From: a virus
Lineage: Duplodnaviria > Heunggongvirae > Uroviricota > Caudoviricetes
Strand: one strand, 5' to 3'
Length of the DNA: 32,229 bases
IMG/VR virus record: IMGVR_UViG_2529292920_000016
Part shown: positions 4,534 through 25,431 of the stretch, piece after piece
Layout: every line of letters starts with the position of its first letter
Position numbering within the stretch: the stretch's first letter is position 1
The notes under the pieces: generated by a model
The model's input: the letters and a program-made list of their open reading frames with translations, nothing else
Told to the model about the DNA's origin: nothing
Database searches by the model: none
Translations under genes and position numbers: made by a program

Positions 4534-4586
4534 GGGCGGCAGAGCAGTCACGGAGTAAAACTGATACCGCCAAACGTCACCAGAAA
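4534..4586 (-). ncRNA. dicF: DicF small RNA (ftsZ-targeting sRNA)
   Basis: The minus strand reads TTTCTGGTGACGTTTGGCGGTATCAGTTTTACTCCGTGACTGCTCTGCCGCCC followed by TTTTT (4529-4533). This is the 53-nt DicF sequence as I recall it, with its terminator. Confidence 0.85.
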
Positions 4587-10993: not shown

Positions 10994-12367
10994 ATGAAAA
11001 GACTATATTATACCCATCATGATAGTCGAACCTTAAAACTTGCTATAGAAGGTGATGTTTCTGATAATGCGAATATTTTTACAGTAATTGTAGGTAAAAA
11101 TGGCGTTGGAAAAAGCAGATTGTTATCTCAGATTGCTAAAGACTGTATTCAAGATATTCATTTCTTGAAAACTTTTAATCCATTATTTGACAGAGAAATA
11201 ACACCAAAGTTAATTGCCGTATCTACCAGCCCATTCGATAAATTCCCTCCAGGGCGTAGGTCATTAAATCACCAAAGGAAAGAAAATAATTATCGCTATG
11301 TGGGTATGCGTGGAGAAGGCCCCTTCGGCGTATCAAATGCCGTATCCCTTTTATCTTCAGCAGCGAGAGGTTGGCTAGAGAAACTTGCTTATTCAGAAAA
11401 TCCTGCAAATTTACTCGATGTTTTTCATTCTATTGATTTTGAGCCCCATATAGAGTTTGTATTTAAACCAACTTACAACGGACCGGACACTCCTGACTAT
11501 AACTTCATTGGTGTATATTCAGATGAGATATTAACGGAAGTTAAGGAGTTATATTTAAAATACAATATAAAAATTGACAGGAAGAATATTGAGAGTCTCT
11601 TAAAGTTAAACTCCGAATCACGTCATGATATTTACGAAGCACTGGTTGAAATTAATCGATTTGAACCTGAACGTAGGGCTGTAACCTTGTCAGTCGATTT
11701 TACCAATGGTGAAACATTGGTTGGCTCGACTTATGCGAATAATTATTTTTCTAGATCAATTCTTAAACTTATGAACGCTGGCTTCATGAGATTGATGGAT
11801 ATGCGACTCATAAAAAAAAGCTATGGTCCCATGTCACTTAAACGTGCGAGCTCGGGAGAACAATGTTTATTAGTGATGTTGCTTGGAATTGCAGGGCATA
11901 TAACTGATGGTTCTATAATACTAATTGATGAACCGGAAATAAGCTTGCATCCTCGATGGCAGGAAGAGTTTATCATTATGTTAACAAAAGCATTTTTAAC
12001 TTACTCAGGTTGTCAATTCATAATTGCAACTCATTCACCACAAATAATATCCAATTTGCCGAATAAAGGTTGTTATATAACATCTTTGTCGAAAAGTTAT
12101 CTTTATAAAGCAAAATACTTTAGCAACCGGTCTGCAGACTATCAACTTGCGGAACTATTTGATGCCCCTGGCATTATGAATGAATACATTGCCAGATTAG
12201 CTTTCAATTTACTTTCAAAAGTTAAGACTGCTAAGTTAGTAACAGATGATAATTGGCGTGAATTAAAACAACTCCAGCTTCTCCTTGAAAACGTTAATAG
12301 TAATGACCCTATTAATGAACTCGTAAATTCCGTATCTCAGGTGTGTGAAATTTATGCCAAAAATTAA
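10994..12367 (+). CDS. ABC/SMC-type ATPase, Septu PtuA-like
   Basis: Walker A GKNGVGKS (aa 34-41), signature-like ASSGEQ, Walker B IILIDEPEISLH and ATHSPQ His-loop. There is a long helical insert between Walker A and the signature. AT-rich. Confidence 0.8.
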   Translation: MKRLYYTHHDSRTLKLAIEGDVSDNANIFTVIVGKNGVGKSRLLSQIAKDCIQDIHFLKTFNPLFDREITPKLIAVSTSPFDKFPPGRRSLNHQRKENNYRYVGMRGEGPFGVSNAVSLLSSAARGWLEKLAYSENPANLLDVFHSIDFEPHIEFVFKPTYNGPDTPDYNFIGVYSDEILTEVKELYLKYNIKIDRKNIESLLKLNSESRHDIYEALVEINRFEPERRAVTLSVDFTNGETLVGSTYANNYFSRSILKLMNAGFMRLMDMRLIKKSYGPMSLKRASSGEQCLLVMLLGIAGHITDGSIILIDEPEISLHPRWQEEFIIMLTKAFLTYSGCQFIIATHSPQIISNLPNKGCYITSLSKSYLYKAKYFSNRSADYQLAELFDAPGIMNEYIARLAFNLLSKVKTAKLVTDDNWRELKQLQLLLENVNSNDPINELVNSVSQVCEIYAKN

Positions 12368-12983
12368 AAATCCAATTAGATTCAGCGCAGAGTCATTAGA
12401 TATTATTGAGAAAAAATTGTCTTCTCCAGATTTTAAGCATACCAACTGGGGAGATGATGATTTGCAAGTTCTCCGTGCAGAAATTAGAAATCATTACAGA
12501 GAAGAACAAAAGCTAGAATGTGTATATTGTCATGAGCCTATTGGGGTAAGAGCTGCACAAGCTGCTCCTATAGAGCATATTGTGCCAAAATCTCAATATC
12601 TATGTTTTATTTTTGAACCTAAGAATCTATGTGTAGTATGTCCTGACTGCAATGAATTCAAAGGTAAAAATGAAGTGTTATTTGAACCCGTAATAAATGG
12701 GGGGCGGCGCAAAAACTATCCAACTGCATCTGCATCATTTCGCATCGTTCATCCACATATAGATGATTATGAGATGCATATTATAAAAGCAAATCGTGTT
12801 TATGTGGACAAAACACCTAAAGGGCACTATACCATTGGAATATGTAAACTAAATAGATTTTTTCATTATTTTGGGATGTGTGATGAATTTGTTAATGATG
12901 CAAAAATTGCTGAGGCAAATGAAAATTTTTTCAAAAAGGTAGTATTACTACTAATGAATTATTGGATGATGACATTCATTTGA
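12354..12983 (+). CDS. HNH endonuclease, Septu PtuB-like
   Basis: ATG 12354 (or GTG 12345) overlaps the ATPase stop. HNH motif: CVYCHEP...IEHIVPKS...NLCVVCPDCNEFKG. Confidence 0.8.
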   Translation: MPKIKNPIRFSAESLDIIEKKLSSPDFKHTNWGDDDLQVLRAEIRNHYREEQKLECVYCHEPIGVRAAQAAPIEHIVPKSQYLCFIFEPKNLCVVCPDCNEFKGKNEVLFEPVINGGRRKNYPTASASFRIVHPHIDDYEMHIIKANRVYVDKTPKGHYTIGICKLNRFFHYFGMCDEFVNDAKIAEANENFFKKVVLLLMNYWMMTFI

Positions 12984-13242
12984 TTTAACTATGAATTATT
13001 ATATTGTAAAGTAATCAGGTAAGATATGTTAGACAGTGAGACTATTGCCTTACAGAATTCATTATTCTTATGGATCGCCTTTCTGACTGATTTCATATTG
13101 GCGGGGTAACGGGAGTTAAGTAGAATGGCTGCGGGTGCTTGAGGCTATCTGTCTCAGGCATGAACACCAAAGGCAGATAGAGAAAAGCCCCAGTTAACAT
13201 TACGCGTCCTGCAAGACGCTTAACATTAATCTGAGGCCAATT

Positions 13243-14331
13243 TCATGCTAGACACATGTAGGTTAGCCTCTTACGTGCCGGAAGGCAAGGAGATGTATGG
13301 GTCCACCACATATTGCAATTTTTATTCTCTTTTAAAATATATTCCACGGGCGTCATTAGTGCGAGCGCCTTGTGGGGTCTTTTGCTGTTATACAGCACCA
13401 GATATTCCGCCAGCTTCTGGTTAAATAGCGCCAGATCTTCAAAGAGTAAAATCTCATTAAATTCAATAAACTGCTCTCTTAACGTCCGGTTAAAACGTTC
13501 ACAGATAGCGTTCATTTTTGGCGTGTAGGGATAGGTCCAGAGGTGTTTGATAGCGGCTTCCTGCAGCGTTTTGTCGAAGTTTCCCAGGAACTCTTTTCCG
13601 TTATCTGTGATTATCTGGCTGATACCGACCGGGAACAACCGGGCTGCGCGGCTGAAGAAGTGATTGACGATATCACTGTTGAGTGACGGCACAGCCAGCG
13701 CCAGCGCGTAATTGCTGCATTCGTCGATCATGGTGATGACATAGCGACGCAGTTCGCCCATTCTGAGCTCAATGGCGTCCATCCCAATGAGCTCACCTGT
13801 CTTTACCGGGCGGTAGTGCTTTGGCCTGCGGGGTTTGGCAGACCGCTTTTTGACAAGCAGTGCCTTCCCCCGCGATCCCAGACGCACAGGTATCATCCGC
13901 ATTTTATCATGTGCGGCAGCGATCATTCTGCCGATGGTGGAAACACTCGGACAGGCCAGATAGCGCTGTTCGCACCAGGGCTTCAGGCGAACAAAAATCT
14001 GCTCTTTACCGAGGTTCGGCAGCTCTGTCCTGAGGCGTCGAATCTCTTTCAGCACATCGGGATGCCAGTGTTTTTTTCGTCGCACCAGAGGTGCCTTACT
14101 GTGCGGGATTAGCCCCTCAGGTCCTTCCTTGTTCAGTAACTGACGCCACCAGTAAAGCGTGCGGCAGGACACGCCAAAGGCTTCAGAAGCTGCAGAAATA
14201 CCGTGTTTATCCCAGAAGTGCAGAGCCTTCATTCTCATTGTTGCTATATCAGCCATCACTGAAAGCCTCAACGCATAATCGGCCGTTTGGTAGTACTTAG
14301 GATAGCCAACCATCAGATGCTGCATTTGCAT
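13243..14331 (-). CDS. DDE (rve-type) transposase, IS481-like single-ORF architecture
   Basis: 362-aa ORF with an N-terminal HTH. DDE candidates are GMDAIE, ITDNGKEF and NAICERFNRTL. The family guess is from architecture only. Confidence 0.75.
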   Translation of the reverse strand: MQMQHLMVGYPKYYQTADYALRLSVMADIATMRMKALHFWDKHGISAASEAFGVSCRTLYWWRQLLNKEGPEGLIPHSKAPLVRRKKHWHPDVLKEIRRLRTELPNLGKEQIFVRLKPWCEQRYLACPSVSTIGRMIAAAHDKMRMIPVRLGSRGKALLVKKRSAKPRRPKHYRPVKTGELIGMDAIELRMGELRRYVITMIDECSNYALALAVPSLNSDIVNHFFSRAARLFPVGISQIITDNGKEFLGNFDKTLQEAAIKHLWTYPYTPKMNAICERFNRTLREQFIEFNEILLFEDLALFNQKLAEYLVLYNSKRPHKALALMTPVEYILKENKNCNMWWTHTSPCLPARKRLTYMCLA

Positions 14332-14387
14332 AGTGCAATCTCCCCTTACTTATCCGGAGGCAATTGCAATATCTCTGTGAACTTACA
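13257..14387 (-). mobile_element. Insertion sequence (boundaries approximate)
   Basis: Candidate terminal inverted repeats are TGTAGGTT at 13257 and the reverse complement of AACTTACA, ending at 14387. I found no clear target duplication, so the ends are uncertain. Confidence 0.5.
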
Positions 14388-14402
14388 CAGGAGAAGCAGG
14401 CT

Positions 14403-14558
14403 ATGAAGCAGCAAAAGGCGATGTTAATCGCCCTGATCGTCATCTGTTTAACCGTCATAGTGACGACACTGGTAACGAGGAAAGACCTCTGCGAGGTACG
14501 AATCCGAACCGGCCAGACGGAGGCCGCTGTCTTCACAGCTTACGAACCTGAGGAGTAA
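14403..14558 (+). CDS. hokD: Hok-family membrane toxin (HokD/RelF-like)
   Basis: The 51-aa product MKQQKAMLIALIVICLTVIVTTLVTRKDLCEVRIRTGQTEAAVFTAYEPEE is near-identical to HokD as recalled. GGAG RBS. Confidence 0.85.
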   Translation: MKQQKAMLIALIVICLTVIVTTLVTRKDLCEVRIRTGQTEAAVFTAYEPEE

Positions 14559-14626
14559 GAGACCCGGCGAGGGAGAAATCCCTCGCCACCTCTGATGTGG
14601 CAGGCATCCTCAACGCACCCGCACTT

Positions 14627-14656
14627 AACCCGCTTCGGCGGGTTTTTGTTTTTATT
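14627..14656 (+). terminator. Rho-independent terminator of the hok transcript
   Basis: AACCCGC-TTCG-GCGGGTT stem followed by TTTTGTTTTTATTTT. Confidence 0.8.
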
Positions 14657-14774
14657 TTCAACGCGTTTGAAGTTCTGGACGGCGCCGGAATAGAATCAAA
14701 AATACTTAAGTAGCGCGCAGGGATAAGAGGGATGGTCCCTTAAAGGGGAGAGCTAATTATCCGGAAGGATTCTG

Positions 14775-19105: not shown

Positions 19106-19181
19106 GGCCCTTTAGCTCAGTGGTGAGAGCGAGCGACTCATAATCGCCAGGTCGCTGGTTCAAATCCAGCAAGGGCCACCA
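19106..19181 (+). tRNA. tRNA with CAU anticodon, ileX/ileZ-like (Ile2) or Met
   Basis: Acceptor GGCCCTT/AAGGGCC, anticodon loop CTCATAA, T-loop GGTTCAAATCC and encoded CCA. Close to E. coli ileX as recalled. Confidence 0.85.
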
Positions 19182-19278: not shown

Positions 19279-19355
19279 GCGTTGTTAGCTCAGCCGGACA
19301 GAGCAATTGCCTTCTAAGCAATCGGTCACTGGTTCGAATCCAGTACAACGCGCCA
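19279..19355 (+). tRNA. tRNA-Arg (UCU)
   Basis: Acceptor GCGTTGT/ACAACGC, anticodon loop CTTCTAA, T-loop GGTTCGAATCC and encoded CCA. Confidence 0.85.
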
Positions 19356-19819: not shown

Positions 19820-20195
19820 ATACATATCTGGATTATCACCTGTTACGGTAAAAAGTGATTGCTTACTGTTTTTGTGAATGGCATTGCAGCAGCCGGATAA
19901 TGTCAGTGCTGGCTGACTGTGTACTGGTGGCGGGTGTGGTGGTTGTTGCTTTCCCGTTGCTGAAAAAGAAAACGCCAGACTGTTAGTCGGAGAAATTTTT
20001 AAATACTTCACAATTCAGGCGGTTGACTGTTGTCTGGTTTGCGGGGAGTTTGTTAAAAGAAACTGGCATGGTGAATCCACCTGTGCGGAGGGGCAATCAG
20101 CGAGTAGGTATATGGGATAATCGCGGATTCAGGTGCTGGTACTGAATTCACCGGGAGGCACCCGGCACCATGCAATGGCACATAGCGCCACTCTC

Positions 20196-20231
20196 CAGCC
20201 CCTCTCCGGAGGGGCTGTTTATATTGATTTT
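20196..20231 (+). terminator. Strong rho-independent terminator
   Basis: CAGCCCCTC-TCCG-GAGGGGCTG (9-bp stem) followed by TTTATATTGATTTT. Confidence 0.75.
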
Positions 20232-22944: not shown

Positions 22945-23151
22945 ATGGAAAAAATCACAACAGGTGTGTCATACACCACGTCAGCGGTGGGGACGGGATA
23001 CTGGTTACTGCAGCTGCTGGACAAAGTCTCTCCGTCCCAGTGGGTGGCAATAGGTGTGCTGGGGAGTCTGCTGTTTGGCCTGCTGACGTATCTGACAAAC
23101 CTTTATTTCAAGATTAAAGAAGATAAGCGCAAGGCTGCGAGAGGTGAATAA
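22945..23151 (+). CDS. Class II holin (phage 21 S / pinholin type)
   Basis: 68 aa with two TMDs. [40 protein letters not shown] is close to S21 as recalled. Confidence 0.85.
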
Positions 23152-23648
23152 TGCCTCCATCATTACGAAAAGCCGTTGCTGCTGCTATTGGTGGTGGGGC
23201 TGTTGCCATAGCGTCTGTGCTCATCACTGGTCCGAGTGGTGACGATGGCCTGGAAGGTGTCAGCTACATACCATACGAAGATATCGTTGGCGTATGGACT
23301 GTATGTCACGGACACACCGGAAAAGACATCATGCCCGGTAAAACGTATACCGAAGCAGAATGCAAAGCCCTCCTGAATAAAGACCTTGCCACGGTCGCCA
23401 GACAAATAAACCCGTACATCAACGTCGATATACCGGAAACAACGCGCGGCGCTCTTTACTCGTTCGTTTACAACGTGGGCGCTGGCAATTTCAGAACATC
23501 GACGCTTCTTCGCAAAATAAACCAGGGCGATATCAAAGGCGCATGTGATCAGCTACGGCGCTGGACATACGCTGGCGGTAAGCAATGGAAAGGGCTGATG
23601 ACTCGCCGTGAGATTGAGCGTGAAGTCTGTTTGTGGGGGCAACAATGA
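23151..23648 (+). CDS. SAR endolysin (R21-type lysozyme)
   Basis: TAATG overlap with the holin. The N-terminal Gly/Ala-rich signal-arrest-release segment is [18 protein letters not shown]. The E...D...T catalytic block is [22 protein letters not shown]. Confidence 0.9.
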
Positions 23649-24082
23649 GCAGAGTAACCGCGATTATCTACGTTCTGGTCATCTGCCTCATCGTCTGCCT
23701 TTCATGGGCTGTTAATCATTACCGTGATAACGCCATCGCCTACAAAGAGCAGCGCGATAAAGCCACATCCATCATCGCTGATATGCAGAAGCGGCAACGT
23801 GATGTAGCAGAACTTGACGCCAGATACACAAAGGAGCTTGCTGATGCTAATGCGACTATCGAAAGTCTCCGTGCTGATGTTTCTGCTGGGCGTAAGCGCC
23901 TGCAAGTCGCCGCCACCTGTGCAAAGTCAACGACCGGAGCCAGCGGCATGGGCAATGGAGAAACCCCAGGACTTACAGCAGATGCTGAACTCAATTATTA
24001 CCGTCTCCGAAGTGGAATCGACAGGATAACCGCGCAGGTTAACTACTTGCAGGAGTACATTAGGACGCAATGCCTTCGATGA
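23645..24082 (+). CDS. Rz i-spanin
   Basis: ATGA overlap with the endolysin. N-terminal TMD followed by a coiled-coil periplasmic domain. Confidence 0.85.
23844..24029 (+). CDS. Rz1 o-spanin lipoprotein embedded in Rz
   Basis: +1 frame inside Rz. AGGAG RBS before ATG 23844. Lipobox LLGVSAC followed by a Pro-rich mature part. Confidence 0.8.
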
Positions 24083-24154
24083 TAGCGATAATTTTCCCAT
24101 TATCTTTTATATGCGTGATTTTAGTTAGTTTTAGTCGCAACACGAATAAAACAG

Positions 24155-24181
24155 AGAACCACCCGCTATACGAGTGGTTCT
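24155..24181. terminator. Bidirectional hairpin between Rz and the antisense cargo gene
   Basis: AGAACCAC / GTGGTTCT 8-bp stem, A-rich upstream and T-rich downstream. Confidence 0.55.
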
Positions 24182-24198
24182 GATTTACACTTTTGAAA

Positions 24199-24429
24199 CT
24201 AAAAGCTAAATACTTGAGCAAGAACAGCTAACGCTGCGCAAAAAGCAGCCCGTTTATTCCATTTACTTTGTATTTCAATGGCTTTAAAACAACCCAGTGA
24301 TGAGAAACTGCCTTGTTCCGTTTTTGGTGGGTGTTCTTTGGAAGATGCAAAACATGAAATAATCCAAAAAATGGCGGAAAAAATTCCAAAAATTATTGAA
24401 GGCAAATGATGCTCTTTCAAAAACTCCAT
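24199..24429 (-). CDS. 76-aa two-TMD membrane protein (cargo in the slot where lambda carries bor)
   Basis: AT-rich minus-strand ORF with a GAGAG RBS. Hydrophobic segments: LPSIIFGIFSAIFWIISCFA and AAFCAALAVLAQVFSF. Confidence 0.55.
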   Translation of the reverse strand: MEFLKEHHLPSIIFGIFSAIFWIISCFASSKEHPPKTEQGSFSSLGCFKAIEIQSKWNKRAAFCAALAVLAQVFSF

Positions 24430-25104
24430 GACTTAACTCTCTTAAAAGTTGCTAAACATCGCTCGCAAACAAGAAAGAAAAGTTCTGTTGCGAGCACTCC
24501 ACAATTTAAACGCCACACAAGCAGCTATTAGGTGGACGGTTCCAAGATTGCTATCAACTGCCACCCGAATACCGTCAAAACTTGACGTCCAACCAAGAAT
24601 TATTGAGTTGTAAACTCAACGCAATGATCTGGTTGGTATAAATGTGACATATGTCATGAATCGACTAGTTGAGATAGTCAAGATGGGCTTGCTTGACATC
24701 ATCACCACAACCGGAGCCAACAATGGCAGATTGCGTTACCCAGATTTGATAAAGGCATTTTAGCCTGACATAACTATGCACTGTATCGTCGCCGTATTCC
24801 CGCATCAACAGAGACCACAGCCCGAGAGGGAGACTCCTCTGCGCGAGTGTGCGGGGATAATCAAAAACGATACACACCGGGGTTTACCGTGTTAACGGAG
24901 CGCGGCGTTGTCCCCTCATGGTCGCTGGTCCGGTGCGATGGTGGAAGAAACCGGACGATGTGTTACCTCGCAAACTCTGTTATGTCATGTGTCTGATTTG
25001 TGATTTAAGTCGGATAATTGTCATTGCCATTAAGCAGAGGATTGATGACCGACAGGGCTGCATTGTTAGAATAAGACTTATTCTTATCTATGCCGGGAAT
25101 AAAA

Positions 25105-25431
25105 ATGAAAAGAAATCTTCCGTTAATTATTTTGTTGTCTTCTTTGGTTATGGGCTGTACGCAACATAAAACAGATATGCCTCGACAGTTGGTTAAGGCA
25201 TTACCACAATATCCGGCCTATGCCGCGGCAAATTATATAAAGGGACGGGTTGATGTGAAGTTTGATATTGGTGCTGATGGTACTGTCACCCGAATTGAGT
25301 TTATCCGTTCAGAGCCGCACCATCTGTTTGATGAGCAGGTTGTAAAGGCGATGGCAAAATGGCGATTTGAGAAGGACAAGCCGCGTAAAGGCGTGAAGAA
25401 AACATTTATCTTTAGTCCTTCAGCACCCTGA
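25105..25431 (+). CDS. Lipoprotein with TonB C-terminal-like domain
   Basis: Signal peptide plus lipobox LVMGC. The YPAYAAANYIKGRVDVKFDIGADGTVTRIEFIRSEP...VVKAMAKWRF pattern is typical of TonB_C. Confidence 0.75.
   Translation: MKRNLPLIILLSSLVMGCTQHKTDMPRQLVKALPQYPAYAAANYIKGRVDVKFDIGADGTVTRIEFIRSEPHHLFDEQVVKAMAKWRFEKDKPRKGVKKTFIFSPSAP

Follow-up and report, generated by a model that had tools for sequence, protein, structure and literature searches.

An IS481-family insertion sequence in a prophage hok/sok locus, directly upstream of the predicted sok promoter

The 32,229-nucleotide stretch of viral DNA analyzed here (the window; Caudoviricetes, IMG/VR record IMGVR_UViG_2529292920_000016) carries a hok/sok toxin-antitoxin locus that is split by an insertion sequence (IS) of the IS481 family. 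The window is 100% identical to a lambdoid prophage adjoining potABCD in Escherichia coli O127:H6 E2348/69 (NC_011601.1). Very probably, the IS entered a complete hok/sok locus at 5 bp upstream of the sok promoter's −35 hexamer, cutting off hok and sparing sok, at a site chosen by the element itself. Based on the other insertion sites of this IS and of its relative ISKpn28, we lean towards a broader proposal, in which the IS481 family includes a group of promoter-seeking elements made up of ISKpn28 and its relative from E. coli. Such elements would generate a 5-bp duplication directly upstream of a sigma-70 −35 hexamer, with the transposase gene co-oriented with the promoter and the core promoter left intact, and would act as recurrent ‘toxin disconnectors’ at hok/sok and ldr/rdl loci on plasmids, prophages and chromosomes.

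The split hok/sok locus and its empty site

The limits of the IS (coordinates of all features in Table 1) were set by comparing the window copy with four copies in other contexts: between iroB and iss on a ColV-type plasmid, between yegH and galF, inside an ldr array, and beside a Klebsiella-type plasmid hok, where the IS is only 75% identical. Complete copies (n = 58) are nearly all 1096 bp long and fall into 8 identity groups. A preliminary description of this DNA, made from the letters alone, had the piece begin at 13243, placed the right end of the IS at about 14387 and counted 15 nt from there to the hok start codon, allowing that boundaries lying elsewhere would undermine its account. 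In part they do: the ends move to 13294 and 14389, the latter 13 nt before the ATG, and position 13243 belongs only to the stop codon of the transposase open reading frame (ORF), which has no stop inside the IS. The termini are TGT...ACA, in a sequence that runs TGTATGGG...CTTACACA, and the imperfect terminal inverted repeats (IRs) of ~27 bp (13294–13319 and 14363–14389) both hold ATATTGCAAT. The palindrome ATTGCAAT (copies at 13312 and 14363) was considered as the target duplication and rejected, as the five contexts identify its copies as internal IR cores with the true ends further out.

The insertion of the IS into a formerly uninterrupted locus is real, and its empty site is of the textbook kind. 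When 13040–13293 is joined to 14395–14700, the resulting sequence aligns without interruption, and with 99.8% identity, to at least 12 E. coli genomes, and it is present at a coverage of at least 80% in 3092 genomes. FORC 064 has the uninterrupted locus with the same prophage neighbours. This is the comparison with uninterrupted homologues that the preliminary description had recommended, with the expectation that relatives sharing the upstream sequence would speak against an insertion. Those relatives run from the retained leader straight into hok and thereby prove it. A second empty site is offered by the ldrD/rdlD locus of K-12, the counterpart of the IS copy L003 in the ldr array.

Only the contiguity of leader, mok and hok on one mRNA is lost in the window; all other hok/sok features tested are present. 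The preliminary description had supposed that the insertion removed the promoter and antitoxin context upstream of the toxin. That supposition fell, as 13098–13293 still holds the promoter and leader of hok, the start of mok, and sok together with its promoter. The hok promoter ends 7 nt short of the leader start at 13133, from where the Rfam model RF01794 matches the hok strand in full length up to 13299 (112 bits; gathering score, 59). At its right end, 6 nt of this match are misaligned onto the IS end. The final AUG of the alignment (cmscan) falls there on an ATG at 13297 and was rejected, since excision of the IS in silico shifts it to the hok ATG at 14403. RF01794, which is named ‘sok antitoxin’, matches the hok-sense strand from the 5′ end of the hok mRNA to the hok AUG; the model describes the hok leader and not the antisense Sok RNA itself. 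After excision, hok and the ATG at 13245 share one reading frame, as hokC and mokC do in K-12; the mok-like ORF (13245–13424) now stops within the IS. Closure of the molecule by pairing of tac with fbi is typical of hok mRNAs, and in the minimum free energy fold of the reconstructed 420-nt mRNA (IS excised in silico) the 5′ end pairs with the 3′ fbi at 14608–14620 (z = −7.45).

Sok-like antisense signals, for which a search had been suggested, turn up just left of the IS in the form of a predicted sok gene and promoter. The predicted start matches the annotated start of K-12 sokC base for base (ACATGT and then the G at 13253), and the predicted RNA folds with −30.5 kcal/mol (z = −6.1). The promoter was aligned with K-12 Psok, TTGACC-17-CACTCT, which is followed by 6 nt (ACATGT) up to the annotated sokC 5′ end. 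At the sequence level, the predicted sok gene and its core promoter are intact. On the other side of the IS, the preliminary description was largely right: the IS, whose rve/DDE transposase gene is on the minus strand, lies directly 5′ of a Hok ORF that is intact (80.4 bits for HOK_GEF versus a cut-off of 22), and the 3′ hairpin and the terminator are present. The GGAG that it had seen before the ATG is indeed a Shine-Dalgarno (SD) sequence, with the amendment that the motif stems from the 5-bp target duplication, whose right-hand copy it is. The IS interrupts the hok mRNA after about nt 161, in the hok SD sequence, which the insertion duplicated. As a result, 1101 bp (the IS and one duplication copy) part leader nt ~161 from the hok SD, and the hok leader, the mok start and sok are displaced by 1.1 kb from the SD and ORF. 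The locus is therefore a disrupted member of hok/sok, in which the IS separates an orphaned toxin ORF from an antitoxin RNA that is probably still active.

The IS comprises a single ORF without frameshift, which RefSeq labels ‘IS481 family transposase’. Its product carries rve, rve_3 and HTH domains by Pfam, with D185, D243 and E278 as catalytic residues, and by far its best match is the NCBIfam profile NF033577 (IS481) with 221.4 bits (E = 1.7e-65), just below the curated cut-off of 224; the IS3 profile scores 98 bits. In every IS copy, the flank supplies another C-terminal tail (16 aa in the window), and these flank-derived tails probably explain why many copies bear the PGAP flag ‘incomplete; missing C-terminus’. 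The ISfinder criterion for isoforms is ~95% DNA identity. The window IS is 74.8–74.9% identical to copies annotated ‘IS481-like element ISKpn28 family transposase’ and is therefore, judged by its DNA, a separate IS species related to ISKpn28. Older copies of the window IS, with 93–94% identity, have fixed places between yegH and galF in the chromosomes of many E. coli strains (~1100 genomes) and between iroB and iss on ColV-type plasmids, and some older copies are frameshifted. These are vertically inherited relics and not recent hops. E. coli strain IAL7255 holds 38 IS copies.

Recurrence of the site and the adjoining, mostly predicted promoters

In the window, the duplication is the exact 5 bp upstream of the sok −35 hexamer, and the transposase gene points in the same direction as the sok promoter. 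At hok loci, the sok −35 stands back to back with the hok SD, and the duplicated GGAGA is therefore the hok SD; integration 5 bp upstream of −35 hexamers would explain why the IS sits in this SD. A second toxin family is hit with the same geometry. The IS copy L003 in the ldr array, which is 100% identical to the window IS, has the duplication CACAG. In K-12, these 5 bp directly adjoin, on the upstream side, the promoter TTGTAA-17-TATTCT that stands before the annotated 5′ end of rdlD. In K-12 (NC_000913.3), the 5′ end of sokC lies exactly 49 nt upstream of the hokC ATG (16903/16952; L162) and that of rdlD exactly 49 nt upstream of the ldrD ATG (3700087/3700136; L163). In both of these unrelated type I systems, the antitoxin −35 abuts the ribosome-binding region of the toxin.

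Viral and metagenome contigs were scanned with the IS end sequences, returning 33, 120 and 41 loci, and a scan of species-representative genomes with the right-end pattern gave two E. albertii matches among those listed. The right end of the IS lies 3–16 nt from the hok start codon in nine sequence-distinct Hok types, with constant orientation (eight of the further Hok types beside the IS score above the Pfam threshold and one is marginal). The IS is 100.0% identical in the window, L011 and L013, although identity between the 230-nt left flanks is just 81–83%. Moreover, one plasmid hok is interrupted at exactly the same position by a window-type IS in L089 and by ISKpn28 in L116, two elements with 75% identity, or the reverse. 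Both observations are evidence of independent insertions at the hok site. The ISKpn28::hok junction is found on at least 1335 plasmids and a full-length copy on ~2088. Many IS copies have left and right flanks from different loci and no matching duplication, for instance a left flank from the leader of a plasmid hok combined with a hokA-type ORF as the right flank; other copies lost 16 bp beside the left end (L080, L067, L081, L140/L141, L095, L133 and L090/L114 for both kinds). This pattern indicates that IS–IS recombination and adjacent deletions are frequent on Klebsiella-type plasmids.

Left flanks were read away from the IS, the way the transposase gene points. Of 24 distinct left flanks, 13 have a TTG at offset 5, compared to 0–3 at any other offset from 0 to 35, and 14 of the 24 pass a −35/−10 test at offset 5 compared to 0–4 at other offsets. 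The right flanks contain no comparable TTG or promoter signal. When the rule was tried on newly fetched left ends, six out of eight new distinct flanks conformed, including GTGACA-17-TATCGT, TTGCAA-17-CATATT and TTGTTT-18-TAAAAT. Overall, TTG is present at offset 5 in 16 of 32 flanks versus a background of 1.5% (P = 3e-21). A −35-like hexamer is found at this offset in 20 of the 32, always in one orientation, and a −10-like hexamer (TAnnnT) follows 16–18 nt further on in all 20, versus 11.7% of background TTG sites (P = 2e-19). Targets other than hok include the late-promoter position between the antiterminator Q and holin genes (TTGAAA-17-TAAATT) and positions upstream of the microcin V immunity/cvaC operon and of a MarR-family gene, all of which are plausible promoters.

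If the rule holds, elements of this group would integrate at approximately −36/−40 of sigma-70-type promoters, with Psok and Prdl, both strong promoters of antitoxin genes, as recurrent targets. The promoter may be recognized by the HTH domain of the transposase, whose site in both IRs would be the −35-like TTGCAA, or by way of the RNA polymerase–promoter complex. A further similarity between IS and target was considered and dismissed. CCCCTTACTTATCCGGAGGCAA (14342–14363, inside the right IR) resembles CCTCTTACGTGCCGGAAGGCAA (13267–13288, leader/sok promoter) at 16 of 22 positions (73%) on the same strand. As a mimic of the Sok promoter or leader this repeat, D3, was rejected, with ~5 such chance matches estimated and a weaker similarity in ISKpn28. 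It is probably due to chance, and its location on the 5′ untranslated region of the transposase gene is suggestive.

Expression of hok and competing explanations

Translation of hok depends on translation of mok and on refolding of the leader. As the mok frame stops inside the IS, the translational coupling between mok and hok is lost. With the tac/ucb/sokT leader 1.1 kb away from the ORF, the coupling lost and no outward promoter visible, hok would be silenced. Judged by this anatomy, hok is most likely silent after the insertion, and Sok is probably still made from its own promoter. Silencing, as at K-12 hok loci, was one of two outcomes proposed in the preliminary description, and both the anatomy and the K-12 precedents make it plausible. 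The other, an outward-reading IS promoter, finds no sequence support, as a consensus scan predicts no sigma-70-like promoter anywhere on the plus strand of the IS. Candidate outward or junction promoters in the IS ends were likewise rejected, since none meets even relaxed −35/−10 criteria and a manual look at 14300–14402 gave only poor −10 candidates. A terminator for transcripts that enter the IS from the hok promoter (hairpin 13341–13378 with a U-rich tract ending at ~13389) was also set aside, being not statistically distinctive (z = −1.6).

Several points weigh against the proposed promoter rule or against our interpretation of the window. The conforming flanks are partly homologous (five hok/sok leaders and two late promoters), so that the P values overstate independence. 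Twelve of the 32 left flanks are off the rule, and the old yegH–galF copy has its TTG at offset 0. Several off-rule flanks lack a matching duplication and have clearly arisen through IS-mediated rearrangement or through deletion next to the IS. Annotated RNA 5′ ends support just two of the promoters, Psok and Prdl, and the 18 further flanks hold predicted promoters. ISKpn28 inserts inside an ORF under selection, at +91 of mgrB (PMC6101004), and ~40% of its distinct chromosomal sites were called intragenic, most insertions being intergenic (PMC5343135). Two hokE-type sites (L122 and L006, the latter from E. albertii) are off the position of the K-12 sokE promoter, as far as their right flanks show. 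The insertions, with GGAGGCAATATAAACATG and GACATG, respectively, as right flanks, lie in the hokE-type translation-initiation region and not 5 bp upstream of the −35 of the sokE promoter (TTGCCT-17-TACCAT in K-12), and they may be exceptions to the rule. As for expression, silencing of hok and continued synthesis of Sok are deduced from the anatomy and the published hok/sok mechanism. The hokD-type ORFs beside window-type IS copies are intact in 17 out of 17 cases, which fits a recent insertion, yet is compatible with retained function. Post-insertion decay of hok was therefore dropped as evidence: the IS copies are nearly identical, the insertions are thus young, and the intactness of the ORFs says little about selection.

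The choice of the site can also be explained without promoter seeking. It seems most improbable to us that the IS inserted by chance, with no target preference, and that the junctions are copies of one ancestral event spread by descent or recombination. Many IS::hok junctions do occur on related plasmids and prophages, where common descent inflates the counts, and IS elements near hok were already known in K-12 (IS186 beside hokC and hokE, IS150 in hokA). Nonetheless, chance accounts poorly for identical IS copies in diverged flanks, for two IS species at the same nucleotide of one hok, for the same geometry at ldr/rdl, an unrelated toxin family, and for a sharp offset-5 TTG peak with a rule that held on new flanks. 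A preference for a short sequence only, i.e., CAA/TTG beside a 5-bp staggered cut, with the promoter-like appearance resulting from the survivorship of harmless insertions, deserves more credit and is still rather unlikely. Insertions that silence a toxin and spare its antitoxin should be neutral, ISKpn28 does insert in ORFs under selection, and TTGCAA, likely the binding motif of the transposase and present in both IRs, resembles the target TTGnnn (PMC6101004). However, a bare TTG preference does not predict a −10-like hexamer at the proper spacing in 20 out of 20 flanks with a −35-like hexamer when background TTG sites have one in 11.7%. Very recent copies (≥98.5–100% identical) already conform (hokD, ldr, L082, L087, L115 and L138), and harmless intergenic TTG sites outside promoters should be many, while none are seen among the targets.

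With regard to the fate of the toxin, the opposite outcome is very unlikely, namely that an outward promoter in the right end of the IS transcribes hok from the duplicated SD and frees the toxin from Sok, for example as a stress- or transposition-linked killer. The duplication keeps the SD–ATG spacing exactly, the hok ORF has stayed intact in all 17 copies, and the IS481 of Bordetella reportedly drives neighbouring genes from outward promoters. Yet, in addition to the missing sigma-70-like promoter on the plus strand of the IS and the poor −10 candidates seen by eye, a hok transcript without sokT would be beyond neutralisation by Sok and should kill the cell. Carriers are nevertheless common, as the same IS–hok arrangement is present in 55 E. 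coli genomes and the ISKpn28::hok junction on the plasmids counted above (at least 1335), which argues against activation. Moreover, the IS end (UCUCUGUG...CACAGGAG) pairs with the SD in the local fold, a fold that is not statistically distinctive.

Related elements, prophage context and significance

ISKpn28 and the window IS are alike in length (1096 bp here, ‘1100 bp’ published), in their TGT...ACA ends and in their single-ORF DDE transposase, and in the flanks analyzed here they share the 5-bp duplications and the target rule. They differ in that their DNA is only ~75% identical. The IR core of ISKpn28 (IS481 family, ~1100 bp), ATATTGCAATT / AATTGCAATAT, is the same as in the window IS (PMC6101004). 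For IncHI5 plasmids, a purely descriptive mention of ‘ISKpn28 upstream of hokG’ exists (PMC6339943), and a Hok survey mentions IS genes near hok with no specific site (10.1101/2025.08.07.668861). The IS150 of K-12 separates the hokA ORF from what remains of sokA. It ends 32 nt before the hokA ATG and divides mokA in two, the same kind of lesion as in the window. IS186 is located downstream of hokC and hokE and thus differs from the window IS in position. The K-12 elements belong to the IS3 and IS4 groups, in contrast to the IS481 family of the window IS, and the K-12 hok loci that bear them were reportedly read as silenced by Pedersen and Gerdes in 1999. For the window IS, the same position has been hit independently many times with sok and its core promoter spared, whereas we know of no recurrent nucleotide-exact site for IS150 or IS186 at hok.

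The family prototype, IS481 of Bordetella pertussis, resembles the window IS in its transposase, its size (~1 kb), its one ORF, the shortness of its duplication and the existence of a defined target preference. The target of IS481 is the palindrome NCTAGN, and its duplication measures 6 bp. The 5-bp duplications of the window IS are of variable sequence, and its target information would lie outside the duplication, in the neighbouring promoter. A fixed distance and orientation relative to a functional signal, which tends to spare host genes (a ‘safe haven’), is also the habit of IS1397/ISKpn1 and IS110-group elements at REP/BIME, of IS1111-attC at integron attC, of class C group II introns after intrinsic terminators, and of yeast Ty3 and fission-yeast Tf1 at promoters. 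The window IS is set apart from these by its signal, which would be the sigma-70 −35/−10 promoter. To our knowledge, no bacterial IS has been described to integrate at a fixed position upstream of −35 hexamers, and full-text literature searches found no description of promoter-directed targeting by the window IS, ISKpn28 or any bacterial IS. While the insertion itself is an ordinary event of an already annotated kind, recurrent and orientation-specific integration 5 bp upstream of a −35 hexamer appears to be undescribed.

The gene order around the locus in RefSeq is AAA ATPase, HNH endonuclease, ‘IS481 family transposase’ (minus strand), hokD and rem. The AAA ATPase (457 aa) and the HNH endonuclease (212 aa), encoded just upstream of the hok locus (10994–12983, plus strand), match PtuA/PtuB (Septu / retron Ec78 effectors) weakly and below threshold and look like a Septu-like anti-phage pair, which also precedes hokD in the uninterrupted FORC 064 prophage. 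Further away, transposase genes of the ISEc13 and IS200C families lie between a SASA-family esterase gene and the holin gene.

Table 1. Features of the split hok/sok locus and further annotated features of the window.
Feature	Position	Strand	Remarks
hok mRNA promoter	13098–13126	+	TTGGCG-17-TAGAAT; consensus scan; also in uninterrupted locus L007
5′ part of hok mRNA leader	13133–13293	+	Rfam RF01794; with tac 13133–13144 and mok-like ATG 13245
Predicted Sok antisense RNA gene	13180–13253	−	start ~13253; hairpin and U-run ending ~13180
sok promoter (predicted)	13260–13288	−	−35 TTGCCT 13283–13288, 17-nt spacer, −10 TAACCT 13260–13265
Target-site duplication, left copy (GGAGA)	13289–13293		original hok Shine-Dalgarno; 5 bp upstream of sok −35
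IS481-family insertion sequence	13294–14389	−	1096 bp; ends from five contexts and empty site
Transposase ORF	13243–14331	−	362 codons: 346 within IS and 16 read from flank
Target-site duplication, right copy (GGAGA)	14390–14394		now hok Shine-Dalgarno
hokD-type toxin ORF, intact	14403–14558	+	51 aa; Pfam PF01848 HOK_GEF 6.8e-23; RefSeq hokD
hok mRNA 3′ region	14566–14653	+	hairpin 14566–14587; fbi 14608–14620 (complementary to tac); intrinsic terminator 14627–14653
DicF RNA	4534–4585	−	76.7 bits
Two tRNAs	19106–19178, 19279–19352	+	annotated Ile and Arg
STnc100 RNA	20037–20226	+	123.6 bits
IS transposase genes, ISEc13 and IS200C families	~23136–24509, 24647–25105	+	RefSeq annotation, converted coordinates

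For the window, these results correct the annotation, in that the prophage hok/sok locus is complete but split. If the promoter rule is true, its implications reach further. For a bacterial IS, homing to one set distance upstream of promoters would represent a new class of target choice and a natural ‘safe-haven’ strategy, with possible use as a tool for promoter-proximal insertion or a corresponding hazard. The rule would also explain why Klebsiella plasmids of clinical importance, among them virulence plasmids of the pLVPK type, so often have ISKpn28 next to hok. Many of the hok ‘addiction’ modules that gene-content surveys score as present on plasmids may then be functionally disconnected.

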